Of a DNA stretch of 64,000 nucleotides, positions 3,883 through 56,228 are shown piece after piece. Numbering within the stretch: the stretch's first letter is position 1; each line of letters begins with the position of its first letter. The notes under the pieces were generated by a model. The model worked only from the letters and a program-made list of their open reading frames with translations. It ran no database searches and had not been told where the DNA came from. The position numbers and the translations under genes were made by a program. The DNA comes from Celerinatantimonas sp. MCCC 1A17872. GTDB lineage: Bacteria > Pseudomonadota > Gammaproteobacteria > Enterobacterales > Celerinatantimonadaceae. The stretch spans positions 14,090 to 78,089 of the forward strand of contig NZ_JBEQCS010000008.1 of the NCBI RefSeq assembly GCF_046054195.1, given 5' to 3'.

Positions 3883-4287
3883 ATGCCACAATTAGAACAA
3901 ATATTGACGGAATGGCTTTCTAATAAATTAAGTGATTCAGAATATTATAAGTATCTTATTGACCATTGTAGTGAATGTGAAAGTAGATTCACACGAGGCA
4001 AGTTTTTACAGCTTAAACATTTTAATCGCGTAGTAGCTCGTGAAATTTTAGATGAGCTCGCACCTTGTGATTTTTGTAACAAGGAATTTACGATAGAGAA
4101 GCTTTTTTCATTACGCGATAATCCGAATTTTGAACTAATTAACAAACCAGATTTTGTTAATATTAGTTTTCCGTATTCAGGTGTAATGGGTCCAGAGCAA
4201 TATGCTCGATGTAAAAAATGTGGAAGTATACTTTTGTTTATCGCACCAGAACGGGAATTTAAAGGTTGGTGGGGTAAGGTGGGGTAA
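3883..4287 (+). CDS. Cassette-borne Cys-rich hypothetical protein (134 aa)
   Basis: ORF with CxxC…CxxC spacing (CSECE…CDFCN…CKKCG) followed by an attC site. Confidence 0.5.
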   Translation: MPQLEQILTEWLSNKLSDSEYYKYLIDHCSECESRFTRGKFLQLKHFNRVVAREILDELAPCDFCNKEFTIEKLFSLRDNPNFELINKPDFVNISFPYSGVMGPEQYARCKKCGSILLFIAPEREFKGWWGKVG

Positions 4288-4385
4288 AACATATAATAAA
4301 TCGCTGCAATTGACAAAATAACTGTCACGAATTTTGGTTCCCAAAATGTAGCGCCAGCTATTTTGCAACTGAGCTCAGCGTTAGG
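4285..4385 (+). other. attC site, family B (shared core …AATAACTGTCACGAATTTTGGTTCCCAAAATGTAGCGCCA…GCTCAGCGTTAG)
   Basis: Near-identical copies at 13452-13545 and 14102-14195. Ends GCGTTAGGG. Confidence 0.65.
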
Positions 4386-4393
4386 GCTCAGAT

Positions 4394-4723
4394 ATGAATC
4401 GAGCATTTGGGAAAGTATTCAAAAGCGAAAATGGCATTGGGTACGGCGTAATCAGAAAAACCAAGGAGCCATTTCCTGAAGTTTTATCGGCTTCGGAGGT
4501 CCTGGCCGAAGACGATTGTGGTAACTATTTGGTTTTACTAAATGATGCCGTTTGCTTCTGGGATCACGAAACAAATGAGATCGAGGTTCTTTCTAATTCA
4601 ATAGATGAATTCGTTTCAAGGTGCTCGACTCCAGAAGAAGTAGAACTAGAGCCAGGCCAAGTTGAATCGGCTTGGATAGACCCCAAGTTTGCGAAGAAAT
4701 TCGGCATCACGAGCAAGTCCTAA
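4394..4723 (+). CDS. Cassette protein, possibly SMI1/KNR4 (SUKH) immunity-like
   Basis: 109 aa with GNYLVLL…VCFWDHETNE, which resembles the SUKH C-terminal motif. Confidence 0.45.
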   Translation: MNRAFGKVFKSENGIGYGVIRKTKEPFPEVLSASEVLAEDDCGNYLVLLNDAVCFWDHETNEIEVLSNSIDEFVSRCSTPEEVELEPGQVESAWIDPKFAKKFGITSKS

Positions 4724-4755
4724 CAAACGCATTAAAGTGGGCGGAGCGTTATAAC
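4721..4755 (+). other. Very short (35 bp) attC-like site
   Basis: TAACAAACGC…GCGTTATAAC with only ~15 bp between the core motifs. Confidence 0.35.
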
Positions 4756-4760
4756 CCAAA

Positions 4761-5276
4761 ATGATCATTGAGCAAGCGCTAGAATTCCTAGGCAAACATC
4801 AGCCTTTGCCATCGGATGAAGAAATATCAGAAGCTGAGATTGATACTTTCAACGAAGTAAGAAAGTTCCTGATTTCAAACCCTGACGAACGTGCAATTCC
4901 TCTTGTACTAAATGCGTTTGGCGATGAAGACGGATTTGGCGTCTACCAGGTTTGTGATGACATATTTAGACCATTTAAACCTGAGGTTGTTTTACCTCAC
5001 TTAAAAAATGAATTGGCAAGTAAACATTACGGGGTTCGCTATTGGGCTGCCCAGTGGGCAATGGAAATCAATTCACTTGATATAGTTCCTGAAATAAACG
5101 CTATGCTAGCAACCCCGGAAGATACGGAGGCTCACTATTATTGTGTTGCCGCGCTCATGGATATATGGCAAAAGACAAAAAATCCGTTTGTGTCTAAGTC
5201 AATAATTGAATTAGGCGGTAAATCCAAGAATACAGATATCTCAGAGCTAATCGATGAACACAAAACACAAAAATAA
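4761..5276 (+). CDS. Cassette-borne hypothetical protein (171 aa)
   Basis: ORF followed by an attC site. Helical-repeat-like sequence. Confidence 0.5.
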   Translation: MIIEQALEFLGKHQPLPSDEEISEAEIDTFNEVRKFLISNPDERAIPLVLNAFGDEDGFGVYQVCDDIFRPFKPEVVLPHLKNELASKHYGVRYWAAQWAMEINSLDIVPEINAMLATPEDTEAHYYCVAALMDIWQKTKNPFVSKSIIELGGKSKNTDISELIDEHKTQK

Positions 5277-5280
5277 GGTT

Positions 5281-5334
5281 ATAACAAAGCAATGTTGCGG
5301 ACTCGCTCTGCTCGCGCGCAAATTGTGGCGTTAG
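5281..5334 (+). other. attC site
   Basis: ATAACAAAGC…GGCGTTAGTTG. Confidence 0.55.
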
Positions 5335-5739
5335 TTGTTAAAAAGTCCGGAGATATTAATGACGTCAAAAGAGGTAGTGATTTCATTTTGGGAAGCGATG
5401 AAATCCAATGATTTTACCAACGCTTGTGAATGGCTTTCCGAAGATTTTGAAGGTTTTTGGCCTCAGAGTTCCGAACTTATTGTTGGACGTAAAAATTTTA
5501 CAGCAATAAACAGTTATTATCCTGCAAACGGAAAATGGTTATTTGACATCAATTCTATAGTTTGTGAGGACAAAACGGTTGTAACGGATATATCAATCAC
5601 TGATGGTGAATTCAAAGCACGAGCAATAACATTTCACACAGTCGAAAATGATTTAATTAAGAAGCAAGTAGAATTTTGGCCAGAAGATTATCCAGCACCG
5701 GAGTGGCGCTCGAAATGGGTCAAAAGGGTAGAAGTGTGA
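5335..5739 (+). CDS. SnoaL/NTF2-like cassette protein
   Basis: The N-terminal pattern SKEVVISFWEAMKSNDF… is typical of the SnoaL_2/NTF2 fold. The ATG at 5359 is an alternative start. Confidence 0.5.
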   Translation: MLKSPEILMTSKEVVISFWEAMKSNDFTNACEWLSEDFEGFWPQSSELIVGRKNFTAINSYYPANGKWLFDINSIVCEDKTVVTDISITDGEFKARAITFHTVENDLIKKQVEFWPEDYPAPEWRSKWVKRVEV

Positions 5740-8541: not shown

Positions 8542-9789
8542 TTGTATATGGATGACGTTTTATCTTCTTGCCTAAATGCTGAAGGAATGTCAGCACAATG
8601 CGTTTATGACAAAATTAATCAAGAGCTAGAAACCGATGGTGATCGGTATAAGGATCTTGGTAGTTTTACTGCTGTACAAATGAATCCTCAAGCCCGTCAG
8701 TTGGTGATGGATAATATGGGTATCAACCTCATCAACCAAAACGAGTTTCCGCAAACAACTAAAATTCACCAGATCTTAGTAACCACATTAGCCACGCTAC
8801 TGCATGCGCCAGATCAACAGCAAGTGACGGGATGTTCGACATCTGGATCGTCTGAAGCTTGTGCGATTGCCATGGTGGCCCATAAAGGTCGCTGGAAAGA
8901 ACGTGCGGCATTGACGGATAGACCCAATATCGTTTTAGGTTCGAATGCGCATTTATGCTGGCGAAAATTTGCCACTTATTTCGATATTGAAGTTCGGGAA
9001 GTGGTATTTAAAGATTTTAATCAGTATCCACTCGAAGATATGTTATCCCTGGTGGACCAAAACACTATCTGTGTTGTTGCCGTTATGGGATCAACCTATA
9101 CAGGGTTCTGTGAACCGATCAAGGCTATTAATGATGGACTAACTGAGCTTAATCAGCGTCATGGCTGGAATGTTGGTATTCATGTCGATGCTGCTACTGG
9201 CGGCTTTATCCGTCCGTTTATAGATGACTCATCTTTACCTGACTGGGATTTTACTTTACCGCTGGTCCAGTCTATTAATTTGTCCGGGCATAAATATGGT
9301 TTGGTTTATCCCGGTATAGGCTGGTTAATATTGCGGGACGAGACCATTTTGCCCGACAAAATGAATATGACCGCCAGTTATTTAACTGGGGAGACTCAGT
9401 CTTTTGCTATTACTTTTTCTCGTTCATCCGCTTTAGTTATTGCCCAATATTTTAATTTTCTCTTTTATGGCATCGCAGGTTATAAGGCTGTGATAGCAAA
9501 TTGTCTAAAACATGCCAAACAACTAACGTCAGTGTTGAATAAATTAGATGGCATTAAAGTGATTAGCGAACAGACATTGCCAATAGTTGCTTTTTTACTA
9601 GAAGATGATACCGGTGAGTTGTCAGAGACATTTACCGCGCAACTTAAACAAAAAGGTTGGTTGATTCCCTGCTATATGATGCCAAGCAATATTAAACAGA
9701 AAGTAATGCGAATTGTCATTCGGGAAGATATGACAAATGCCCGTCTGGACGAATTAATTCAGGATATTTGTGAGGTACATGCCAGATGA
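8542..9789 (+). CDS. Group II PLP-dependent decarboxylase, glutamate decarboxylase (GadB)-like
   Basis: The NLSGHKYGLVYPGIGWLILRD block parallels GadB [21 protein letters not shown], and the C-terminal half aligns colinearly with GadB. Preceded by 700 bp of AT-rich non-coding DNA. Confidence 0.75.
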   Translation: MYMDDVLSSCLNAEGMSAQCVYDKINQELETDGDRYKDLGSFTAVQMNPQARQLVMDNMGINLINQNEFPQTTKIHQILVTTLATLLHAPDQQQVTGCSTSGSSEACAIAMVAHKGRWKERAALTDRPNIVLGSNAHLCWRKFATYFDIEVREVVFKDFNQYPLEDMLSLVDQNTICVVAVMGSTYTGFCEPIKAINDGLTELNQRHGWNVGIHVDAATGGFIRPFIDDSSLPDWDFTLPLVQSINLSGHKYGLVYPGIGWLILRDETILPDKMNMTASYLTGETQSFAITFSRSSALVIAQYFNFLFYGIAGYKAVIANCLKHAKQLTSVLNKLDGIKVISEQTLPIVAFLLEDDTGELSETFTAQLKQKGWLIPCYMMPSNIKQKVMRIVIREDMTNARLDELIQDICEVHAR

Positions 9790-9838
9790 ATGTTGTTTTG
9801 TGTTTGACCAAAGGATTGGGAATTGGGGCATATTGGAT

Positions 9839-11224
9839 ATGAAGAGTAACAAAAAAACAAATATGGGAATATTTCGTCCCCACCCAAAAATCGAAGCTAT
9901 ATTGTTGTCTTGCGTAATTGTATCACTGGTCGGATGTTTGTCTTTTCTTATCTATAGTAAGTCCAGTTCGGTATTAAAAAATGAAATTAAATTAGGTTTA
10001 TTGTCTAATGTTTCAGCTGCGGCAACAACGATTAACGGGGATTTGCACCGAACATTTAATAAAAATACTTCGCGGCAAGATCCTAATTATCTCGCCGTGG
10101 CAAACTCATTAGAGAAAATCAGGGAAGCCTCTCATAATGTTCGTTATATCTATACGAATATTTTAAAAGGGGGCAAGGTCTATTTTGTGGTAAATCCTAG
10201 TCCACAAAATGATAACGATGGCGATGGTGTACCCGATTTAGCTCCCGCGCTGATGGAACAGTATGAGAACCCTGCTCCGGAATTAGTTCAAGCCCTAAAA
10301 GACCATAAAAGTGTAGTGACCAGTCCATATCAGGATAGTTGGGGCCGATTTATCAGTGGTTATGCTCCTTTTTATGATTCTCAGGGGCGTTTTGTTGGCG
10401 TGCTGGGGATGGATTTGCAACTAAATGACTTTGATCAGCGGATGCACCCTATCACACTGATTTTTGAGAAAACCGCTATTATTGTCTTTTTTGTTGGCTT
10501 GATTGTTGGCCTACTGACTTGGTTTTCAAGACGTTATACGGGCTCTATTCTTTTAGATAATCAAAAACTTACCAGTAATCAAACCCACTTTGAACAGTAT
10601 TTACAATCAGAAACGGGGCATTACCGTCAAGTCATAGAGGCAATTGGGCAAAAAGTGAAGTCAATGCCTTTAACAGAGACAACTCAGGTTCAAGATATCG
10701 AGCAATGGATATCAGCCTGGAATAACTATTTTCAATCTAGCCAAAGCAAGATATTCAGTGAGGACAATTTTCATCTGGATAGTATGCTCAACCATATTGC
10801 ACTAGCAACGAGTGATGTCGTTGCGCTTGATATCAATCAAGAACCCTCGGTCCCCAATTATTTTTACGGCAGTTCTGCGCAATATGAGACGCTATTAAGC
10901 GAATTAGTGAAGGCTCTGCATATTCTTCATGTTGACCGGGAAGTGATGCAACTATTTGTCAGACTAGAAAATGAGCTGGTGGAGGAAGTCAGTTTAGCTA
11001 TCTCTGTCTGTGTAGCAAAAGATGGGGTATCGAGCTGTCAGGCACCTGTCTTTACGCCCGATTTTTCTTTTGCTGAGACTTATAGTGTCCAGCAGATCCA
11101 GTTTTTCAGTACTGTTGCCAGGATAGAAGAATTGGGAGCAAGTATTGATTGGATTGATGACAAGACACAACAAGGATATCAGCTGACCTTTTCTGTCAGT
11201 AAATACAGGGAAGTCGAGCAATGA
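9839..11224 (+). CDS. Membrane sensor with a periplasmic Cache-like domain and an uncharacterised cytoplasmic domain
   Basis: Two TM segments flank a domain carrying the dCache-like motif GYAPFYDSQGRFVGVLGMDL. The ~230-aa C-terminal region has no HAMP, MCP, kinase or GGDEF motif. Start is uncertain; the ORF opens at 9770. Confidence 0.6.
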   Translation: MKSNKKTNMGIFRPHPKIEAILLSCVIVSLVGCLSFLIYSKSSSVLKNEIKLGLLSNVSAAATTINGDLHRTFNKNTSRQDPNYLAVANSLEKIREASHNVRYIYTNILKGGKVYFVVNPSPQNDNDGDGVPDLAPALMEQYENPAPELVQALKDHKSVVTSPYQDSWGRFISGYAPFYDSQGRFVGVLGMDLQLNDFDQRMHPITLIFEKTAIIVFFVGLIVGLLTWFSRRYTGSILLDNQKLTSNQTHFEQYLQSETGHYRQVIEAIGQKVKSMPLTETTQVQDIEQWISAWNNYFQSSQSKIFSEDNFHLDSMLNHIALATSDVVALDINQEPSVPNYFYGSSAQYETLLSELVKALHILHVDREVMQLFVRLENELVEEVSLAISVCVAKDGVSSCQAPVFTPDFSFAETYSVQQIQFFSTVARIEELGASIDWIDDKTQQGYQLTFSVSKYREVEQ

Positions 11225-29270: not shown

Positions 29271-30875
29271 TTAATTTGCCAATCTTTGCACTTGTTCCCA
29301 ACGAATTCCAAATTTAGCTAAATACTTTTGCAAACGAGATGAGTCGTTATGGCTGGCTTTGCGGGTGCGGCTCACATCGAATAAGGCTCGTCCAGCTGAT
29401 GCAAGTGAGCTTTGGTTCGCGCAGACACTTAGCACATATTCAAGTTGGTGGCGATCAAAGCTATCTAGCGATGCAAGCGTTTCATCGCTTAGTAACTGCA
29501 CCGCTAAGGATACTGATTTTGTAGTATTTGGTTGCCAGTCAGCGCTCAGGCGTTGGGTTTCTTCATGCACATCACTTAGCGCAATTCGTGACGAATCAGC
29601 CAATGTGCAAAGCCGAGTAATGGATGAGCCTAAATCGCGAAAATTTCCGCGCCAAGTCGCATTAGCTGAATAGGCAAAGTTAAGGTAGGCGGTGCGAGCT
29701 TCTTTATTAAAGCGAATTTTGTTGCCATGTTTTTGGCTAAATTTTTGTAATTCAAATTCAATATTGGCTTCAATATCTTCTTTTCTGTCTTTAAGCCCCG
29801 GCAGTTCATAACTCCACAGATTAATTCGGGCGAGTAAATCTTCGCGAAACTCACCCTTATTCACTGCTAATTTCAAGTCACGATTGGTTCCGGCAATTAG
29901 CTGAAAATTACTTTGAATTTCTTTATCGCTGCCCACTGGATGAAATGACTTATTCTCAATCGCTCGCAGCAACATTGCTTGCTCTTCAAGGCCTAATTCT
30001 CCAACCTCATCTAAAAATAATAAGCCATTATCAGCTGCTTTTAAGAAACCTCCGCGAGCAGTGGCAGCTCCTGTAAACGCACCTTTGGTGTGTCCGAATA
30101 ATGCCGCCATCGCGTTTTCACCTTTTAAGGTGGCGCAGTTTACGGTAATTAACTCGCCTGTAAGGGCGGCGCGTTTTTTCTTCAGTTGATAAATACGTCC
30201 AGCTAGCTGACTTTTCCCGGCACCCGTTGGCCCCGTGAGTAAAATAGGGGCGTCAGAGCGAATCGCCACTTTTTCGATCTGGGCAATCATGGTGTTAAAC
30301 GCCGCACTTCGAGTAGCAATCCCACCTTTTAGAAAGTCGGTGCCGTGTTCGTGTTCAGCATCAAAACGGGTTGCTAGCTGATCGTATTTAGATAGATCCA
30401 GATCGATGATCTGAGTCCGCCCTTTGGCTTTGTCTTCTTGTGAGCTATCTGGCGATGTTTGAATTAATCGCCCCGGGAAATGGTGGCTTTCAGTGAGCAA
30501 AAAGCAGCAAATCTGAGCCACATGAGTCCCAGTGGTGATATGAAACAGGTAGTCATTTCGGTCAATATCAAACTCCAGGACCGAGCAAAAGTCATATAAC
30601 TTGGCATAGACTTCACCAAAATCCCAAGGGTCTGCAAAATCAATGCAGTGCAGTGTGACTTTTGTTTGTGCTGAGATGGTCTCAATATCCACCGCAACAT
30701 TATTGGCTAGGTGCCAGCTTGCATCAGGATAAATCAGATGTAACTCGTCAATCATAAGCGAGTCTTGGCTGACCAGAGAAATATTGGGACGCCATCTTTG
30801 CCAGCGTTTTTTGCCTCGTCCAACCGAATCAAGTTGAGTCCCTAACAGACTCACCACCACCGTTTTTTTAACCAA
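29271..30875 (-). CDS. rtcR: Sigma-54-dependent RNA-repair transcriptional activator RtcR
   Basis: N-terminus MVKKTVVVSLLGTQLD…RWRPNISL parallels the E. coli RtcR CARF-like domain. Has an AAA+ sigma54 domain (GPTGAGKS…GAFTGA) and a C-terminal HTH. 534 aa versus 532 aa in E. coli. Confidence 0.85.
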   Translation of the reverse strand: MVKKTVVVSLLGTQLDSVGRGKKRWQRWRPNISLVSQDSLMIDELHLIYPDASWHLANNVAVDIETISAQTKVTLHCIDFADPWDFGEVYAKLYDFCSVLEFDIDRNDYLFHITTGTHVAQICCFLLTESHHFPGRLIQTSPDSSQEDKAKGRTQIIDLDLSKYDQLATRFDAEHEHGTDFLKGGIATRSAAFNTMIAQIEKVAIRSDAPILLTGPTGAGKSQLAGRIYQLKKKRAALTGELITVNCATLKGENAMAALFGHTKGAFTGAATARGGFLKAADNGLLFLDEVGELGLEEQAMLLRAIENKSFHPVGSDKEIQSNFQLIAGTNRDLKLAVNKGEFREDLLARINLWSYELPGLKDRKEDIEANIEFELQKFSQKHGNKIRFNKEARTAYLNFAYSANATWRGNFRDLGSSITRLCTLADSSRIALSDVHEETQRLSADWQPNTTKSVSLAVQLLSDETLASLDSFDRHQLEYVLSVCANQSSLASAGRALFDVSRTRKASHNDSSRLQKYLAKFGIRWEQVQRLAN

Positions 30876-31026
30876 TTCAATCTATCCAAATAGATATATT
30901 TATATCTTTATTTCATCATTTAACTGTTTTTTCTGCAATTAAAAAATAGCCTTAGAAATTAAATTTAAAAAAATAACCAAATAAAAACAAATTGTTAAAA
31001 ATAAATTTTAATTTTTCATCTGCGTT

Positions 31027-31042
31027 TGGCACGTCACTTGTA
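31027..31042 (+). promoter_or_regulatory. Candidate sigma-54 promoter for the SPFH-rtcB operon
   Basis: TGGCAC-N5-TTGTA, with GG at -24 and GT instead of GC at -12. Sits ~150 bp from the rtcR start and is preceded by an A/T-tract-rich region. Confidence 0.5.
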
Positions 31043-31134
31043 ATAGTTAAATTGTTGTAATTGTTCGGAGTGTTTCGAAATAGCACCCTGGTGCGATAGG
31101 CTCTGCCTAAATCGTATGCCAGATTACAGCGTGA

Positions 31135-31187
31135 TTTTAAGTCTCGGTCGGCGAGATGTTTGGGTTCGATTCCCAACTTAAAAACCA
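31135..31187 (+). ncRNA. tRNA-like minihelix element 1: acceptor stem, hairpin, canonical T-arm and ACCA
   Basis: TTTTAAG pairs with CTTAAAA. TCTCG-GTCGG-CGAGA hairpin. T-arm TTGGG-TTCGATT-CCCAA. Ends A-CCA. No D-arm or anticodon arm. Confidence 0.45.
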
Positions 31188-31257
31188 ATGGATAGCTCAA
31201 TGGTAGAGCAACGAACAGCAAATTCGTGTGTCGTGGGTTCAACTCCCACTCCGCTTA
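31188..31257 (+). ncRNA. tRNA-like element 2: D-arm, anticodon-like arm and T-arm, with an imperfect acceptor stem
   Basis: D-arm GCTC-AATGGTA-GAGC. Arm ACGAA-CAGCAAA-TTCGT. T-arm GTGGG-TTCAACT-CCCAC. Only 4-5 of 7 acceptor pairs form, and position 33 is not U, so this is not a functional tRNA. Confidence 0.45.
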
Positions 31258-31423
31258 ATAGAAAAATCGGTGTGAAAGTCGTTATTACCGCTGGTTGGAT
31301 ATCGCTTTTTAATAGCGGGTTATGGCAAGCAGGATAGCTCCCCATAACACAAGTTAATCAGCCATTTTCAATCAAGTCATTAACATTTCACACCATCCCG
31401 TTTGGGATAATGAGGAAAATAAG

Positions 31424-32578
31424 ATGTTTAAGAAAAAAATTACAGTTGCAGATAACGAACGAGTATTGGTCTTCAAAGCAAATCAGCTTTGTGAAGTGTT
31501 GATGCCTGGTGAATATAAATTCAAAGGCTTCTCTCAAGAACCAGAGCTTAAAACTTACGATATTGGCAAGCTCTATTTTGCCGAAGAAAATACGGTTCGT
31601 TGGTTTAAAAAATACCCAATTTTAGCTGAGCATATTGACCATTATTACGTCGAAGATAGCCAAACAGCGTTGCTGTATCTTGACGACCAACTTCAAGGGG
31701 TGGTGAGCCCTGGCTGCCATCTATATTTGTGGCGCGATGCTGGTGATATCCGTTTGGATATTATCGATATCAGCGAGCAATTGCAGTTGGATGAAGCGGT
31801 GTTAAATGCCATTCGTAAAGTGGGTGCAAATGCCGGGAGCAAGCTGTTAAAAAGCAGCCGTACTCAGGCTATTACGCCAGTTAAAGAGTTTTTAATTCCT
31901 CTGGAACATGCCGCTTTATTGTATGTAGATGGTTGTTATCAACGCCAGTTACCACCAGGGCGCTACGGCTTTTGGATGTTTCATAAAAATGTCGATGTGA
32001 AAACTATCGATGTGCGTAACAAAATGTTGGAAGTGTCGGGTCAGGAAATTTTAAGCAAAGATCGGGTTAGCTTGCGCATCAACCTCAACGCGAATGTGAA
32101 AGTGGTCGATGCTGAATTGGCGCTGTTAAGTACGGAAACCGTGATGACGTATGTCTATAACACTTTGCAGTTAGCTTTGCGTGAGGCGGTTGGTGTGAAG
32201 ACTCTCGATGAGTTGCTGCTTGATAAGCTCTATGTCAATGAAACCGTCAAAGAGCTGGTGGTGGAACCTCTCAAAGCGGTCGGTGTTGAGCTGTTAAGTG
32301 TCGGGATGAAAGACATCATTTTACCAGGTGATATGAAAGCGATTTTAAATCAGGTAGTTGAAGCGCAAAAAGCAGCCGAAGCGAATGTGATTAAACGCCG
32401 TGAAGAAACCGCGGCTACGCGTAGCTTGAACAATACCGCGAAGATGATGGAGAACAACCCAACGTTGCTGCGTCTTAAAGAGCTGGAGTCGCTAGAAAAA
32501 ATCTCCGAAAAAATCGAAAACCTGACCGTTTACGGTGGGTTAGAAGGGTTGATGAATGGCGTTGTAAAAATCGCCTAA
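31424..32578 (+). CDS. SPFH/band-7 (slipin-like) domain protein with a unique N-terminal domain
   Basis: The C-terminal half has SPFH-like β/α repeats and a coiled-coil (…EAQKAAEANVIKRREETAA…). First gene of the RtcR-controlled operon. Confidence 0.65.
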   Translation: MFKKKITVADNERVLVFKANQLCEVLMPGEYKFKGFSQEPELKTYDIGKLYFAEENTVRWFKKYPILAEHIDHYYVEDSQTALLYLDDQLQGVVSPGCHLYLWRDAGDIRLDIIDISEQLQLDEAVLNAIRKVGANAGSKLLKSSRTQAITPVKEFLIPLEHAALLYVDGCYQRQLPPGRYGFWMFHKNVDVKTIDVRNKMLEVSGQEILSKDRVSLRINLNANVKVVDAELALLSTETVMTYVYNTLQLALREAVGVKTLDELLLDKLYVNETVKELVVEPLKAVGVELLSVGMKDIILPGDMKAILNQVVEAQKAAEANVIKRREETAATRSLNNTAKMMENNPTLLRLKELESLEKISEKIENLTVYGGLEGLMNGVVKIA

Positions 32579-32625: not shown

Positions 32626-33852
32626 ATGTGTGAACAGCATTACAACATATTAACTGGCGAGAATCGCGTGGCGATTAAAGCGTGGACCAAAGGCGTGCCG
32701 TTTGAACCTGATGCGTTAGCGCAGCTGAGTAATATTGCCGCGATGGATATTGTTCATTCGCATATTGCTGTGATGCCAGATGTGCATGTGGGCAAAGGGG
32801 CAACGATTGGCAGTGTTATTCCATCGACTAAAGCCATCATCCCATCAGCGGTGGGAGTGGATATTGGGTGTGGTATGGTTGCGTTAAAAACCAGTTTAAC
32901 GGCCAGCCAGCTGCCTGATAATTTATCAGCTATTCGTAGTGCATTTGAAGCTGCTGTGCCACATGGTAGAACCTCAGGACGAGGTAAAAATGACCGTGGG
33001 TCTTGGGGTAATATCCCTGATCTTGTGGCTCTTGAATGGGTAAAGTTAGAAGCTCAGTTTGAGCGTATCTGTGAAAAACACCCGTCGATTCGAAGCAGCA
33101 ACAATGTTCACCATTTGGGTACGATGGGCACCGGAAATCACTTTTTAGAGCTGTGCGTGGACGAAAATGAACATATTTGGCTCATGCTGCACTCCGGCAG
33201 TCGTGGGGTCGGTAACCGGATTGGTTCATATTTTATTCAACTGGCTCGTAAAGAGATGGAACGTCATCAGAGCCAATTGCCAGATATGGATTTAGCGTAT
33301 CTGCAAGAGGGAAGCGAATATTTTGATGATTATGTTGAAGCGGTGCAGTGGGCACAGGATTTCGCTGCTAAAAATCGTGAAATCATGATGATCAATGCTC
33401 TCAATGCGCTGCGCCAACAGATCCCAGTTAAGTTTGAAACGGCGAGTATCGCAGTGAATTGTCACCATAACTACGTATCGCGGGAACACCATTTTGGTAA
33501 AGACTGCTATGTGACTCGAAAAGGTGCGGTGCGCGCTGAAAAAGGCGAGTTAGGGATTATTCCCGGTAGCATGGGCGCAAAATCGTTTATCGTGCGGGGG
33601 CTTGGTAATGCACAAAGCTTTAATAGCTGTAGCCATGGTGCCGGTCGAGTGATGTCTCGGACCAAAGCTAAAAAAGTCTTTAGCATAAAAGATCAGATTG
33701 CGGCGACCCAAGGGGTTGAGTGTCGTAAAGATGCGGCTGTAATTGATGAGATCCCGCATGCTTATAAAGATATTGAGCAGGTGATGGCGGCACAAAAAGA
33801 CTTAGTAGAAGTTGTGCATACTCTTAAACAGGTCGTATGCGTTAAAGGATGA
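32626..33852 (+). CDS. rtcB: RNA-splicing ligase RtcB
   Basis: 408 aa. Metal- and GMP-binding motifs HNYVSREHHFGK…, NSCSHGAGR and the His-Gly ladder. Confidence 0.9.
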   Translation: MCEQHYNILTGENRVAIKAWTKGVPFEPDALAQLSNIAAMDIVHSHIAVMPDVHVGKGATIGSVIPSTKAIIPSAVGVDIGCGMVALKTSLTASQLPDNLSAIRSAFEAAVPHGRTSGRGKNDRGSWGNIPDLVALEWVKLEAQFERICEKHPSIRSSNNVHHLGTMGTGNHFLELCVDENEHIWLMLHSGSRGVGNRIGSYFIQLARKEMERHQSQLPDMDLAYLQEGSEYFDDYVEAVQWAQDFAAKNREIMMINALNALRQQIPVKFETASIAVNCHHNYVSREHHFGKDCYVTRKGAVRAEKGELGIIPGSMGAKSFIVRGLGNAQSFNSCSHGAGRVMSRTKAKKVFSIKDQIAATQGVECRKDAAVIDEIPHAYKDIEQVMAAQKDLVEVVHTLKQVVCVKG

Positions 33853-33947
33853 GAGTAGTCAATATAAGTGGTGGCGAGTTGGCAAGCCATTAGTCGGTAA
33901 TGAAAGTTGAGTTGTTGGCAATTCGCCATGATGATAGGGGTTGTATT

Positions 33948-34760
33948 ATGAAAGTTGTCACAAGCCAAGTGTTGCAAAATGCGGTTGCGGAGAATGTACG
34001 CCAAGAAATTGTTGCGCGCATCGCTCAAGCAGAAGCAGAGCATCAGGTTAAAGTCTTGTATGCTGTTGAATCAGGTAGCCGAGCCTGGGGGTTTGCATCA
34101 ACCAATAGCGATTATGATGTGCGATTTATCTATGCGCACGAAGCTGACTGGTATCTGAGCATGGATGTTGAGGACCAGCGTGATGTGATTGAATATCCGA
34201 TTGTCGATGAGATAGACATCAATGGGTGGGATGTGCGAAAAGCGCTTCGATTATTTCGCAAGTCAAATCCAGCGATGGTCGAGTGGTTAAGTTCGGCTCT
34301 GATTTATGCTGATGATGGCGTCTTCGCTCGTGAATTGAGGCCACTTCTTAAAACGAGTTATTCGTTAAATAAGGGAATATTTCATTATTTAAATATGGCG
34401 CGAACAAACTATCGCGGTTATCTCAAAAGCCAGGAAGTACGTGTTAAAAAGTACTTTTATGTATTGCGCCCGCTACTGGCAATTCGTTGGTTGCTGAAAT
34501 ATCAAAGCGTTGCGCCCATTGAGTTCGAAAAACTATTAACGCTGCTTGATGAAGCGGATGTTCGAGAGCAGGTTGAGCGCTTATTAGTGCTCAAGCGTAA
34601 TGGACAAGAGCTCGATAGTGGGCCGCAGATTGTGCTCATCAATCAGTTTATTGAACAAGAGCTAAATCGCTATGAAACGCTCAAGCCACTACCTAATGAC
34701 TCGATGGCTGACAGCGCGACACTCAATCGAGTTTTTAGATGTGTGCTCAACAGCCTCTAG
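33948..34760 (+). CDS. RtcB-associated Pol-beta-superfamily nucleotidyltransferase (RlaP-type)
   Basis: GS…WG…SDYD nucleotidyltransferase motif (VESGSRAWGFASTNSDYDVRFIY). Confidence 0.7.
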   Translation: MKVVTSQVLQNAVAENVRQEIVARIAQAEAEHQVKVLYAVESGSRAWGFASTNSDYDVRFIYAHEADWYLSMDVEDQRDVIEYPIVDEIDINGWDVRKALRLFRKSNPAMVEWLSSALIYADDGVFARELRPLLKTSYSLNKGIFHYLNMARTNYRGYLKSQEVRVKKYFYVLRPLLAIRWLLKYQSVAPIEFEKLLTLLDEADVREQVERLLVLKRNGQELDSGPQIVLINQFIEQELNRYETLKPLPNDSMADSATLNRVFRCVLNSL

Positions 34761-34895
34761 CTTTTCTGATATGTTTGGCTGCTCAAACGGGCAGCCCTTT
34801 TTTAGTTGGGGCGTTGGTTAAGCCCTAATCGGTGAGTTAGATGAAGGTTGGCAGACGTTGTGATAAATCCATATACACCCAGTTCAATCGCCGCT

Positions 34896-35453
34896 ATGTT
34901 AGATAGCTATCAGTATCTAGTGATTATCGATATTGAACATACCTGCACGGCTGATGGTTCGATTGTGGCTGATGAGCGCGAAATTATTGAAATCGGCGCG
35001 GTCATTGTCGATTCTCAAAATTTTGCACCGGTTGCGACGTTTGGCCGTTTTGTAAAGCCCGTACAGCATCCGATATTGGATGATTTTTGTGTTACGTTAA
35101 CGGGTATTCAACGCGCTGATGTTGCCAGTGGTGAAGGTTTCAAAGAGGTTCTTAGTGCTTTTAACCAATGGCGAAAAACTTATCGAGATTATTTGCTCTG
35201 TTCCTGGGGCAGTTATGATCAGGTGCAACTTGATTTAGACTGCCGCTATTATGCTCTGGCGCCTATTTCTGCTGAGCCTTTTTTCAATCTCAAAAAAGCC
35301 TTTGCTAAAGTGCAGCGGCTCAAATCGCAAGTCGGAATGAAGCGCGCCATGGCGCATGTTGGCCTAGCTCAACAAGGCGCTCATCACCGAGCGTTAAGCG
35401 ATGCGCAAAATATTGCTCGATTGCTGCCGTTTATATTTTTAAAAGATAAGTAG
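34896..35453 (+). CDS. DEDDh 3'-5' exonuclease (KapD/ERI-1-like)
   Basis: Exo I motif LVIIDIEHTC, then …EIIEIGAV… and a C-terminal H…D. Start uncertain; alternative TTG at 34848 or GTG at 34857. Confidence 0.65.
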   Translation: MLDSYQYLVIIDIEHTCTADGSIVADEREIIEIGAVIVDSQNFAPVATFGRFVKPVQHPILDDFCVTLTGIQRADVASGEGFKEVLSAFNQWRKTYRDYLLCSWGSYDQVQLDLDCRYYALAPISAEPFFNLKKAFAKVQRLKSQVGMKRAMAHVGLAQQGAHHRALSDAQNIARLLPFIFLKDK

Positions 35454-54980: not shown

Positions 54981-56228
54981 TTATTGTTTGTACTGGATTG
55001 GAAATGTCAGTGTAATAGTCGTGCCACCCATTGGTTTAAATGGGCTAGCAATTTCCAATTTTGATTGCTCTCCAAATAAAAGTTGTAAACGGTTAATGAT
55101 ATTATTAATGCCAATCCCTCCTTTTTGGCGGTTTTGGTTCCCGGAAAGAATGTGTTCAATATCGTCAGGTGATATGCCATTGCCATTATCTGATAGGGTA
55201 ATAATGACATTTTCACCATCATCTTTAGCATAGATATCTAATTGGCTTTTTGTTTCTCTTGGTTCGACAACATAATTAAAGAAATTTTCTACTAAAGGCT
55301 GCATAATTAAAAATGGGCAGATAATTTCTAGATATTTTGGGGCAATGTCACAGGTGTAATCAAATCTATCTCCCATTCTTACTTTTTGGATAGACATATA
55401 ATTTTGCACATATTTTACTTCGTGGCCTAAAGTAATTAAGCCGCGGCTATTTTTACGCAATAAATAACGCATCATATCTGAAAATTCATGCACCATGGTT
55501 TCGGTGCGTTGGGCATCTTCAAGATAAGCCAAGCGGCCAATCGTATTGAGGACATTAAATAAAAAATGAGGATTCACCTGATACGACAATGCTTTAAATT
55601 CAGCCTCATGAAGGGAGCGTTCGATTTCCATGCGTTTACGCAGTTCATCGGTTAATTCAAGCTCTTTTTGGTGGAGTTCACGTTGAATTGTATTGGTGTA
55701 TGCTTGCTCAACCAGATAAGAAACTAGATTAAACAGTGCATAAGAGATAGCCGAAAAGCGCTCATAAGGCATGGTTTGAATCGTCGAATCTTGAGATACA
55801 TTGAGTTGCAACTCATCGCGCAGATGGTTTTGCTCAAGAATATACTCAATAGCCTGCTCGTTGTCTTTCTCAACGTGGACCTGGCCTGAGATAAATGCGC
55901 CCAGATAGTGGCCATTAATCATAATCGGTACGGCACATTCGATGAATCCGCAATCACAGCGATAGACAACCGGTTTTTGTGCTTTCATCGCGGCCCTTCC
56001 GCCAGCATCATCGTTGTCGTAACAAATTTTGGCAAGTTCAGGGTTATTGCGAAAGTGAATGCATCTAGCGCAAAAGCCACTGGGGTGGGTTACCGGTACG
56101 CCATTCTCATCAACAATCACAAGCGCAACCATCATGGACTTACTGAAGTTATCTTGTAAGGTTTGCAGGCGTGCGACATCGATATATTCAGTAAGTTTAT
56201 AATGAGAAGCCATGATGGATACCTTCAA
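54981..56228 (-). CDS. Cytoplasmic sensor histidine kinase with an N-terminal PocR-like domain (YesM/LytS-type)
   Basis: No TM segment. N-terminal Cys-rich PocR-like region. [13 protein letters not shown]-box and a HATPase_c domain. Confidence 0.75.

Follow-up and report, generated by a model that had tools for sequence, protein, structure and literature searches.

Introduction

YrlA (Chen et al., 2014; Wang et al., 2018) is a tRNA mimic encoded in RtcR-controlled rtcB operons, where it accompanies rsr. It is circularly permuted with respect to tRNA, a loop closes its acceptor stem, and its 5' and 3' ends form an Ro60-binding stem that replaces the anticodon arm. The RNA is processed by RNase P and then receives CCA (PMC4201824). 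[quoted passage not shown] In 2018 its existence was still unvalidated (bioRxiv 10.1101/312249). No further paper using the term b7a-tRNA was found in a literature search. Burroughs and Aravind, writing in Nucleic Acids Res 2016; 44:8525, reportedly put it forward as the SPFH counterpart of Y RNA.

A possible relative occurs in Pseudomonas aeruginosa, in which PA4581.1 ('tRNA-Arg4') lies between the divergent rtcR (PA4581) and the cluster PA4582-PA4585, which includes an SPFH gene (PaFlo8), rtcB and rtcA. It is an atypical tRNA without CCA and with an odd base in the D-loop, and it is detectably expressed. Its level is unchanged upon induction of the Rtc proteins, a behaviour easier to reconcile with a constitutive promoter than with a leader under sigma-54 alone. 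PA4581.1 is annotated as a single unit, and its homology to the elements described below is one of position and description only.

Leader organization and operon genes

The locus lies in a window of 64,000 nucleotides from Celerinatantimonas sp. MCCC 1A17872, that is, the whole stretch of DNA that was analysed, to which all coordinates refer. A leader of about 370 nt precedes an SPFH-RtcB-RlaP-exonuclease operon that is divergent from rtcR, the gene of a sigma-54 enhancer-binding activator. The features are as follows:

29271-30875, minus strand: rtcR, with an N-terminal RtcR/CARF domain (Pfam RtcR 6.5e-77, Sigma54_activat 1.5e-48)
31027-31042, plus strand: sigma-54-type promoter TGGCAC-GTCAC-TTGTA (sequence motif)
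31056-31128, plus strand: conserved 5' leader motif (comparative conservation)
31135-31187, plus strand: module 1, a reduced tRNA-like unit (family covariance model 26.2 bits, E 1e-5)
31186-31257, plus strand: module 2, a full-cloverleaf b7a-type tRNA-like RNA (ARAGORN, Rfam tRNA, family model)
31266-31396, plus strand: rod-like structured motif of about 130 nt between the modules and the SPFH start (covariation)
31395-31408, plus strand: short hairpin AUCCC-GUUU-GGGAU (sequence)
31412-31416, plus strand: Shine-Dalgarno GAGGA of the SPFH gene, directly after the short hairpin (sequence)
31424-32578, plus strand: SPFH/Band-7 (slipin-family) gene, tracked by tRNA-like modules across phyla
32626-33852, plus strand: RtcB RNA ligase (Pfam RtcB 5.4e-125)
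33900-34760, plus strand: RlaP nucleotidyltransferase (Pfam RlaP 1.1e-86)
34848-35453, plus strand: RNase_T-family 3'-5' exonuclease (Pfam RNase_T 9e-22)

The original prediction had placed two adjacent tRNA-like modules in a sigma-54/RtcR-controlled leader, behind a TGGCAC-N5-TTGT promoter. The promoter can be read at 31027-31042, upstream of both modules, and the family covariance model matches each of them. Transcription is predicted to start near 31052. The TGGCAC-N5-TTG element keeps a constant distance of about 105 nt 5' of the first module in L006, L007, L011, L013, L014, L023, L039 and other loci, and the constant spacing from the promoter through the 5' motif to the modules suggests a single transcript. 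Around the modules, neither a separate sigma-70 promoter nor a terminator was found above shuffled expectation, the single 'terminator' match being module 1's own hairpin. An 11-codon ATG frame in the spacer was rejected as a small ORF because it is not conserved in the Shewanella loci L001 and L002, and a 96-aa minus-strand ORF (30952-31242) that overlaps the leader is taken to be spurious. At the site equivalent to the short hairpin, the other aligned loci have a variable hairpin with arms that are complementary in every locus read.

Regarding the operon genes, the biochemistry of the RlaP family has been described (PMC12776372), and the exonuclease gene is probably the last of the operon; a similar gene lies beside the tRNA-like/SPFH pair in the Thiotrichales locus L051. 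The SPFH protein is predicted to lack transmembrane helices, its N-terminal extension is rich in beta structure, and no recognisable RNA-binding fold was found in its N-terminal domain.

Structure of the tRNA-like modules

The sequence of module 1 agrees with its earlier description as an acceptor-like stem, one hairpin, a T-arm and A-CCA. The acceptor stem has 7 bp (TTTTAAG/CTTAAAA, 31135-31141/31177-31183) and encloses a mini D-like hairpin of 4 bp with a GUCGG loop (CTCG-GUCGG-CGAG, 31143-31155) and a T-arm (TTGGG-TTCGATT-CCCAA, 31160-31176), and the 3' end consists of a discriminator A (31184) and an encoded CCA (31185-31187). The unit has no anticodon arm, and the family model aligns to it with the D and anticodon arms deleted. 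In its counterpart in Shewanella (L001, L002), both the acceptor stem (U-A to G-C) and the hairpin (G-C to A-U) have undergone compensatory changes, and similarly reduced units are present in L007, L010, L028-L030 and L032-L040.

Module 2 overlaps the CCA of module 1 by 2 nt at its start and ends 166 nt before the Band_7 gene, on the same strand. ARAGORN reports it as tRNA-Cys(GCA) at 31186-31257, and it scores 49.9 bits with the Rfam tRNA model (RF00005; E 5e-9, gathering score 29). Its match to the family covariance model, which was built from 85 homologous SPFH-linked elements, is stronger than to the generic tRNA model (71.5 bits, E 1e-19), and apart from the two modules no site in the 64 kb is better than E = 4.8. 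The D-arm, anticodon and T-arm elements noted previously belong to a full cloverleaf, but the accompanying statement that the acceptor stem does not close was too strong because only 1:72 and 3:70 fail to pair, leaving five of the seven. The module reads CAGCAAA ('GCA') in its anticodon loop, has A as its discriminator and lacks an encoded CCA. The modules keep U8, A14, G18G19, the UUCRANY T-loop and G53-C61. In single-sequence folding, the z-scores of the minimum free energy (MFE) of single modules are only -0.7 to -1.4, and the MFE fold of the whole leader fails to recover the cloverleaf; such folding is not informative here, and the support is comparative.

Other assignments were considered. 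The tmRNA model (RF00023) was rejected, with 12.1 bits over the T-arm only and no tmRNA reported by ARAGORN. A third module at 31060-31134 was likewise rejected, since the family model has no match there and the segment corresponds to the distinct conserved 5' motif. The YrlA model (RF02553) reaches 19.7 bits on the leader (E 0.86), against a gathering score of 69, in a match that spans only the T-arm of module 1 and the D-arm of module 2, and 16 related loci gave no YrlA match. The leader shares with YrlA the D-arm UAGCUCA..GGUAGAGC and the T-arm GGGUUCGA.UCCC, but its modules follow the normal tRNA order with open acceptor ends and lack an Ro-binding stem and rsr, and the segment CUUAAAAACCAAUGGA between T-arm and D-arm does not form the YrlA-type hairpin, with non-pairs flagged. 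The parallel with the tRNA-mimicking domain of YrlA thus stands on the D-arm and T-arm match, whereas membership in that family is rejected on score, topology and the absence of rsr. As had been stated, no Ro60 gene was found with the leader: the TROVE domain is absent from the operon and from ten other window ORFs of at least 400 aa, a scan that left out the 415-aa ORF at 54981-56228 and shorter ORFs.

Conservation across SPFH loci

For comparison, 80 loci encoding orthologous SPFH proteins were recovered. One to three modules lie upstream and on the same strand in 78 of the 81 leaders of orthologous SPFH/slipin genes, in taxa that include Gammaproteobacteria, Cyanobacteria, Acidobacteria and Myxococcota, and the family model matches nearly every locus having upstream DNA. 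A strict T-arm motif is found at least once in 78/81 leaders and at least twice in 54/81, and outside leaders it occurs only 16 times in 685 kb. The nearest loci belong to Shewanella, with 80-81% amino acid identity of the SPFH protein, which corrects the earlier placement in Vibrionaceae. Runs of ordinary-looking tRNAs are located 5' of the last, SPFH-proximal unit in L049, L055 and L059. A search of IMG/VR viral contigs for a phage origin returned no relative of the SPFH protein.

The conservation and covariation on which the original prediction had been made to depend are both evident, as the modules are conserved across phyla and the cloverleaf covaries strongly. Cloverleaf cells are paired in 91.9% of cases, compared with 68.8% in shuffles, double changes occur in 19 of the 21 cloverleaf pairs, and sliding reduces the covariation score from 0.635 to at most 0.157. 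Within this framework the D-arm and T-loop hold 1.7-2.0 bits per column, with the D-arm and T-arm sequences given above more than 90% invariant in the family, and the anticodon triplet holds only 0.12-0.43 bits.

This difference bears on decoding. The anticodon loop is 7 nt long in 56 of the 94 cases and differs in the other 38, many being 3-6 nt, and pairs from different loci that are at least 90% identical outside the loop have an identical loop in only 4 of 42 cases. The orthologues of module 2 in L001 and L002 have UUU and GUU anticodons in otherwise conserved bodies. Since the anticodon loop is hypervariable in both sequence and length, these RNAs do not decode, and with the acceptor mismatches this upholds the earlier view that neither module is an ordinary decoding tRNA. 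With canonical tRNA (RF00005) they share the cloverleaf, the tertiary-interaction nucleotides and co-transcription with protein genes, but they differ in their unconserved anticodon, variable loop length, weak terminal acceptor pairs and a D-arm sequence that is uniform whatever the 'anticodon'. One could still read module 2 as a genuine tRNA-Cys gene with module 1 as a decayed remnant alongside, given that ARAGORN and Rfam place module 2 above the tRNA threshold and that the P. aeruginosa element at the equivalent position is annotated as tRNA-Arg. We regard this reading as extremely improbable: the anticodon differs between the window (GCA) and the orthologous loci L001 (UUU) and L002 (GUU), acceptor pairs 1:72 and 3:70 are mismatched, the discriminator is A where tRNA-Cys identity needs U73, and the family contains nonsense anticodons and loops of other lengths than 7 nt. 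The reduced shape of module 1 is maintained through compensatory changes, which also speaks against the decayed tRNA gene that had been named as a way for the original prediction to fail.

The same loop variability invites a reading of the modules as decoys or sentinels that are cleaved by, or soak up, tRNA-targeting toxins such as anticodon nucleases, so that the fast-changing loop would be the mark of an arms race, and the mimic, once cleaved, could supply RtcB or serve as a damage signal. The anticodon loop does evolve far faster than the body, and in many last modules the loop retains a tRNA-like C/U32-U33...A37-A38 frame around triplets (UUU, GUU, CAU and others) that correspond to known anticodon-nuclease targets. 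Besides, the Anabaena pair has a HEPN RiboL-PSP gene nearby, and Hughes et al. suggested competitive inhibition of anticodon nucleases as a possible role of YrlA (PMC7790460). However, the 38 of 94 loops that are not 7 nt long, many with 3-6 nt, would be poor anticodon-loop mimics, a plain lack of constraint accounts equally well for the variability, and Salmonella YrlA is not cut by the damage-induced nuclease (PMC7790460). We therefore consider a decoy role unlikely.

The linkage itself distinguishes between possible partners. The pair of SPFH gene and tRNA-like unit is kept in Anabaena, Acidobacteria and Thiotrichales with no RtcR or RtcB within 4 kb, so the primary partner appears to be the SPFH protein rather than RtcR. 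It had been proposed that the modules, transcribed from the operon's own leader, serve the CARF domain of RtcR as a built-in ligand or an autoregulatory RNA. This domain binds tRNA fragments with 2',3'-cyclic phosphate ends (PMC7790460; PMC9650030), and in the gammaproteobacterial clade the modules do adjoin rtcR, behind RtcR's promoter. This proposal now looks very unlikely as an RtcR-specific device, because the modules are equally conserved beside SPFH genes without rtcR within 4 kb, the RtcR proteins of E. coli and Salmonella work without such an element, and tRNA fragments alone failed to activate RtcR in vitro (PMC9650030). Moreover, an RNA made only after activation could amplify the signal but not sense it.

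Altogether, the modules are conserved non-decoding tRNA mimics immediately 5' of a particular SPFH/slipin gene, and the leader is very probably a b7a-tRNA locus. It combines a tRNA-like cloverleaf, Band-7/SPFH adjacency, an RNA-repair neighbourhood (RtcB, RlaP, RNase_T exonuclease, RtcR) and a sequence match to other members, so that the window fits a class whose definition is known second-hand in position, strand, cloverleaf and gene neighbours. The element can consequently no longer be called previously undescribed, as the class had been predicted by Burroughs and Aravind in 2016 according to the passage outlining it (bioRxiv 10.1101/312249). Features seen here for which an earlier description is unconfirmed are the tandem arrangement of one to three units, including reduced ones such as module 1, the CCA that is encoded on module 1 and overlaps the start of module 2, the hypervariable anticodon loop, the placement behind a sigma-54/RtcR promoter and the two extra conserved leader motifs.

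Conserved motifs flanking the modules

Loci of the Alteromonadales/Vibrionales clade have the 5' motif on one side of the mimics and the rod, with its invariant GGCAAGCNGGAUGCUCCCC apex, on the other. The 5' motif is formed by an outer helix TGTAAT (31056-31061)/ATTACA (31123-31128), a hairpin GTGTT-TCGAAAT-AGCAC (31070-31086) and a helix CTGGTGCG...CGTATGCCAG (31088-31122). An equivalent of 86 nt (85-100 nt) is present in all of L003-L045 except L044. Its GTGAU.../...AUCAC hairpin and GGUGCG/CGUAUNCC helix are almost invariant and compensatory changes are few, some being seen against Shewanella in the alignment. No Rfam family matches this motif.

The rod is closed by an outer helix GGUGUGAAAG (31269-31278)/UUUCACACC (31386-31394) and has a near-invariant core, GGCAAGCAGGAU(A)GCUCCCC (31324-31343), closed by the apical stem GUUAUGG (31319-31325)/CCAUAAC (31342-31348). 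RNAalifold on 28 loci yielded 33 pairs, 30 of them with compensatory changes, and rod cells are paired in 86.3% of cases against at most 41.8% when slid, values that none of 500 shuffles attains. With the covariance model of the rod, the window reaches 90.2 bits (E 7e-18), and all of L001-L045 except L027 are matched. The model has zero matches in L046-L080, outside the gammaproteobacterial clade, where the core also has no convincing match within 3 substitutions, four at exactly 3 mismatches resembling chance. Rfam gave no match to the rod at E up to 10. Cyanobacteria have at the equivalent place a different conserved spacer of 400-500 nt with an extra T-arm unit. What is new here is the covarying rod and the conserved 5' motif, neither of which is in Rfam.

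The position of the rod makes a cis-acting role conceivable, in which the long leader would be cut at the modules, their main task being to admit RNase P/RNase E. The mRNA thus released would begin with the stable rod, which would set how stable SPFH-rtcB is or how well it is translated, and the excised pieces would be by-products. In agreement with such a device, the modules always occupy the same strand and a fixed place 5' of the SPFH gene, the constant spacing noted above suggests a single transcript, and the structured 130-nt element of the gammaproteobacterial clade ends about 30 nt before the start codon. Nevertheless, a cleavage signal alone needs neither a D-arm that is near-invariant across phyla nor one to three tandem full cloverleaves, and, unlike the universal tRNA-like modules, the rod occurs in a single clade only. 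We judge a mainly cis-acting device to be rather unlikely, and note that it would be compatible with a partner RNA of the SPFH protein. Somewhat tentatively, and at less than even likelihood, the whole leader of about 370 nt could form a single composite non-coding RNA with several domains, the mimics being just the part recognised so far.

Proposed function of the modules

Overall, the best explanation, which we hold to be probable, is that b7a-type tRNA mimics are processed from the leader and act as partner RNA of the SPFH protein. As suggested by the layout, RtcR and sigma-54 would fire the promoter at 31027-31042 to give one transcript with the 5' motif, the mini-module 1, the full module 2, the rod and SPFH-rtcB-rlaP-exonuclease in this order. 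Every element of the tRNA L-shape is kept, so the tRNA-processing machinery should excise the modules. By analogy with YrlA of M. smegmatis, an RNA that RNase P cleaves and to which CCA is added, a cut by RNase P 5' of module 2 would also leave module 1 ending in ...A-C(CA).

The freed RNAs of about 50 and 72 nt may then act in trans as partner of an oligomeric SPFH scaffold, in the manner of Y RNA and Ro60. They would help to recruit RtcB, RlaP and the exonuclease to damaged substrates of tRNA shape, or to keep them there; alternatively, they would occupy tRNA-binding sites. Because the anticodon loop is free to vary, recognition must use the invariant elbow of D-arm and T-loop and not the anticodon. 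The partner-RNA role is the hypothesis of Burroughs and Aravind, and the specific mechanism of an SPFH cofactor is plausible to us at somewhat less than an even chance. Counting against the explanation as a whole are the two acceptor mismatches and the lack of CCA in module 2, the unchanged level of PA4581.1 upon Rtc induction, and the N-terminal domain of the SPFH protein, in which no RNA-binding fold was recognised. The vault particle, composed of the major vault protein, vault RNA and the TROVE protein TEP1, is a distant analogy only.

Biological significance

The locus adds no new category of RNA, and instead offers a compact case in which a sigma-54/RtcR-inducible transcript carries one reduced and one full mimic, with the prediction that a single cut at the junction of modules 1 and 2 frees both. 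It also illustrates a hazard for annotation, since module 2 is labelled tRNA-Cys by ARAGORN and Rfam and the P. aeruginosa element at the equivalent position is listed as tRNA-Arg. In many genomes, non-decoders of this kind may have entered the count of tRNA genes and inferences on codon usage. Additionally, two conserved RNA structures could join Rfam.

These findings touch on a broader question, namely why tRNA mimics, whether Y RNA/YrlA or b7a-tRNA, are part of RNA-repair systems at all. If the composite view of the leader is true, its flanking domains could be docking sites for the SPFH protein or sensors that gate translation of SPFH and RtcB, and the hypervariable anticodon loops might be a selected determinant of specificity. 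Should the flanking domains prove to be functional RNAs, the SPFH system would amount to an unexpectedly complex bacterial ribonucleoprotein.

Organization of the locus and structure of the modules

The interval holding the leader lies in the 548-nt gap that separates two divergent units, and the gammaproteobacterial modules sit behind an RtcR-type sigma-54 promoter.

Features of the locus (window positions)
29271-30875, minus strand: rtcR (Pfam RtcR/CARF plus sigma-54 AAA+ domain)
31027-31042: sigma-54 motif TGGCAC-GTCAC-TTGT, read in the sequence
31056-31128: 5' leader motif, upstream of the modules and about 20 nt past the sigma-54 motif
31266-31396: rod motif (90.2 bits with R2, its covariance model)
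31424-32578, plus strand: SPFH/Band-7 protein gene, in an operon with the next three
32626-33852, plus strand: RtcB
33900-34760, plus strand: RlaP
34848-35453, plus strand: RNase_T-family exonuclease

The architecture originally predicted for module 1 (31135-31187) was confirmed element by element in the sequence: a 7-bp acceptor stem (TTTTAAG/CTTAAAA), a hairpin (CTCG-GUCGG-CGAG) and a T-arm (TTGGG-TTCGATT-CCCAA) followed by A-CCA. Module 2 (31186-31257) was called by ARAGORN as tRNA-Cys(GCA) and reached 49.9 bits on the Rfam tRNA model, against a gathering score of 29. Its acceptor stem had been described as not closing; in the Rfam tRNA alignment it is weakened by non-pairs at 1:72 and 3:70 but not absent, as five of the seven pairs form. 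With R1, the covariance model of the tRNA-like elements, module 2 scored 71.5 bits (E = 1e-19) and module 1 scored 26.2 bits (E = 1e-5), while the rest of the 64 kb gave no further match better than E = 4.8. Folding energies in single-sequence folding of the leader and modules were unremarkable; the case for the modules rests on comparison across genomes. Elsewhere in the window, a 484-aa ORF (9770-11224) unrelated to the modules had no Pfam match at E up to 1e-6.

Conservation of the tRNA-like elements across loci

Relatives of the SPFH protein number in the thousands, the closest named ones being from Shewanella (80-81% identity). Using one genome per species, we assembled 80 loci with orthologous SPFH genes (L001-L080), spanning Shewanella, Pseudoalteromonas, Alteromonas, Colwellia, Vibrio, Photobacterium, Thiotrichales, Myxococcota, Acidobacteria, Planctomycetes, Cyanobacteria and others. 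In most of them ARAGORN called one to three tRNA-like elements on the same strand, 150-900 nt upstream of the SPFH gene, many with nonsense or undetermined anticodons. R1, built from an alignment of 85 SPFH-linked elements, detected elements in almost all loci for which upstream DNA was present, also where ARAGORN had missed them.

The cloverleaf of these elements is strongly supported as a real conserved structure, and the covariation sought in the original prediction was found: in the 85-element alignment 91.9% of the cells were paired (68.8% in shuffles), 19 of 21 pairs showed changes on both sides, and the covariation score was 0.635 compared to at most 0.157 with slid partners. Moreover, 78 of 81 leaders held one or more copies of a strict T-arm motif, which occurred only 16 times in 685 kb outside them; since 54 of the 81 leaders carried at least two, tandem units are the rule. 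Reduced units like module 1 recur (L001, L002, L007, L010, L028-L030 and L032-L040), and relative to the Shewanella loci the shape of module 1 is kept by compensatory changes in the acceptor stem and hairpin.

Two groups of loci deserve separate mention. L066, a Bdellovibrionota MAG with an SPFH orthologue of 40% identity, was the only locus with upstream DNA negative in both the family model and the strict T-arm scan, which detected no tRNA-like unit up to 1 kb upstream of SPFH. In the Pseudoalteromonas luteoviolacea group (L032-L043), whose leaders hold a reduced tRNA-like unit followed by one full unit, the SPFH gene (4001-5590) encodes a protein about 150 aa longer, the extra residues being a duplicated N-terminal beta-rich region.

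Sequence conservation was unevenly distributed along the 94 aligned elements, with 1.7-2.0 bits per column in the D-arm (UAGCUCA..GGUAGAGC) and T-loop and 0.12-0.43 bits in the anticodon triplet; the anticodon loop had 7 nt in only 56. Of the 42 pairs from different loci with 90% identity or more over the rest of the element (mean 94.5%), only four had a common loop, and even two pairs showing 100% identity over the rest of the element had different loops. In the window and its two closest relatives the anticodons are GCA, UUU and GUU on otherwise conserved bodies. Besides, tRNA-Cys identity needs U73, and the discriminator of module 2 is A. The variable triplet, the rarely shared loop and the discriminator bear out the earlier claim that these are not functional tRNAs. 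As explanations, a real tRNA-Cys and a decayed pseudogene can both be effectively discarded. The SPFH-linked elements are conserved, covarying tRNA mimics with an invariant elbow (D-arm and T-loop) and an anticodon loop free to vary.

Genuine-looking tRNA genes were also seen. A tRNA-Met lies just downstream of rtcR in several Pseudoalteromonas and Endozoicomonas loci, joined in L017 by a tRNA-Tyr (L013:1484-1560, L018:1534-1610, L039:1438-1514 and L017:966-1215, minus strand); the CAU loop of the tRNA-Met is the same from locus to locus, whereas the loops of the SPFH-linked mimics differ. In one Myxococcota MAG and two gammaproteobacterial MAGs (L055:1-1534, L059:436-3633 and L049:2274-3585), SPFH follows a series of about 5 to 15 normal-looking tRNA genes whose anticodons are standard; each series ends in an SPFH-proximal unit, which suggests that tRNA arrays are linked to this SPFH system.

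Additional structured motifs in the leader

The 170-215 nt that separate the last module from the start codon of SPFH hold the rod motif, of constant length (127-132 nt) and with a near-invariant apex (GGCAAGCNGGAUGCUCCCC). Of the 33 pairs predicted by RNAalifold, 30 showed compensatory changes; 86.3% of the cells were paired and the covariation score was 0.572, compared to at most 41.8% and 0.139 when slid, and none of 500 shuffles matched the observed values. R2 restricted the motif to RtcR-linked gammaproteobacterial loci (the window and L001-L045 except L027), with no match in L046-L080, and no Rfam 15 family matched it at E up to 10.

The 5' motif comprises a hairpin with a 7-nt loop and a near-invariant GGUGCG...CGUAUNCC helix, and is present in L003-L045 (L044 excepted) at a nearly constant length of about 86 nt (85-100 nt). 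Its covariation support is thin because the motif is mostly invariant, and no Rfam family matched it at E up to 10. In five cyanobacterial loci (L071, L075, L076, L079 and L080), SPFH is separated from the last tRNA-like unit by a conserved non-coding spacer of their own (400-500 nt), which differs from the gammaproteobacterial rod motif and includes a further reduced unit whose T-arm is CGGUUCGACUCCG.

Discussion

The tRNA-like elements are tied to the SPFH gene. The gammaproteobacterial order is rtcR, modules, SPFH and RtcB, with RlaP further on, but Anabaena, Acidobacteria and Thiotrichales have the module-SPFH pair and neither RtcR nor RtcB at a distance of up to 4 kb, indicating that the invariant link is between the tRNA-like RNA and SPFH. 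This weakens the RtcR-specific autoregulation initially envisaged, and a role of the modules as an RtcR ligand is improbable. Neighbors in such loci include an RNase_T exonuclease and a HEPN RiboL-PSP gene (a predicted RNase); in Anabaena (L076:615-1211) the latter precedes the tRNA-like/SPFH pair by about 2 kb.

The leader would be co-transcribed with the operon and the modules excised by RNase P and the tRNA 3'-end machinery, in which case cleavage on the 5' side of module 2 would give module 1 a near-mature 3' end as well. By analogy with Y RNA and Ro60, the released RNAs may partner the SPFH scaffold in RtcB/RlaP-mediated repair. A mainly cis-acting role of the modules in processing or stability seems a weaker candidate, and we regard a function as decoy or sentinel for an anticodon nuclease as unlikely.

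[quoted passage not shown] Wang et al. (bioRxiv 10.1101/312249) treat b7a-tRNA in their discussion as a predicted RNA then awaiting experimental validation, and functional redundancy with YrlA is proposed for it. We found no other paper using the name, and Rfam has no dedicated family for b7a-type elements, which RF00005 absorbs. The class is known and still uncharacterised, and the new content is possibly the tandem and reduced-unit architecture, the hypervariable anticodon loop and the two flanking structured motifs. The suggested likeness to YrlA holds as far as both are analogous tRNA mimics, but the YrlA match in the window, which joins the module 1 T-arm to the module 2 D-arm, reached only 19.7 bits where the gathering score is 69.

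A comparable element is PA4581.1 of P. aeruginosa, annotated as tRNA-Arg, without CCA and with an atypical D-loop base, which lies between rtcR and an rtc cluster with the SPFH gene PaFlo8. qRT-PCR has detected it at roughly half the amount seen for canonical tRNAs, its level was unchanged while Rtc proteins rose, and in a late cystic-fibrosis isolate it ranked with the genes showing the strongest up-regulation. Standard tools give these mimics the names of ordinary tRNAs, tRNA-Cys in the window (31186-31257) and tRNA-Arg in PAO1, and genome tRNA inventories are probably inflated by b7a-type members.
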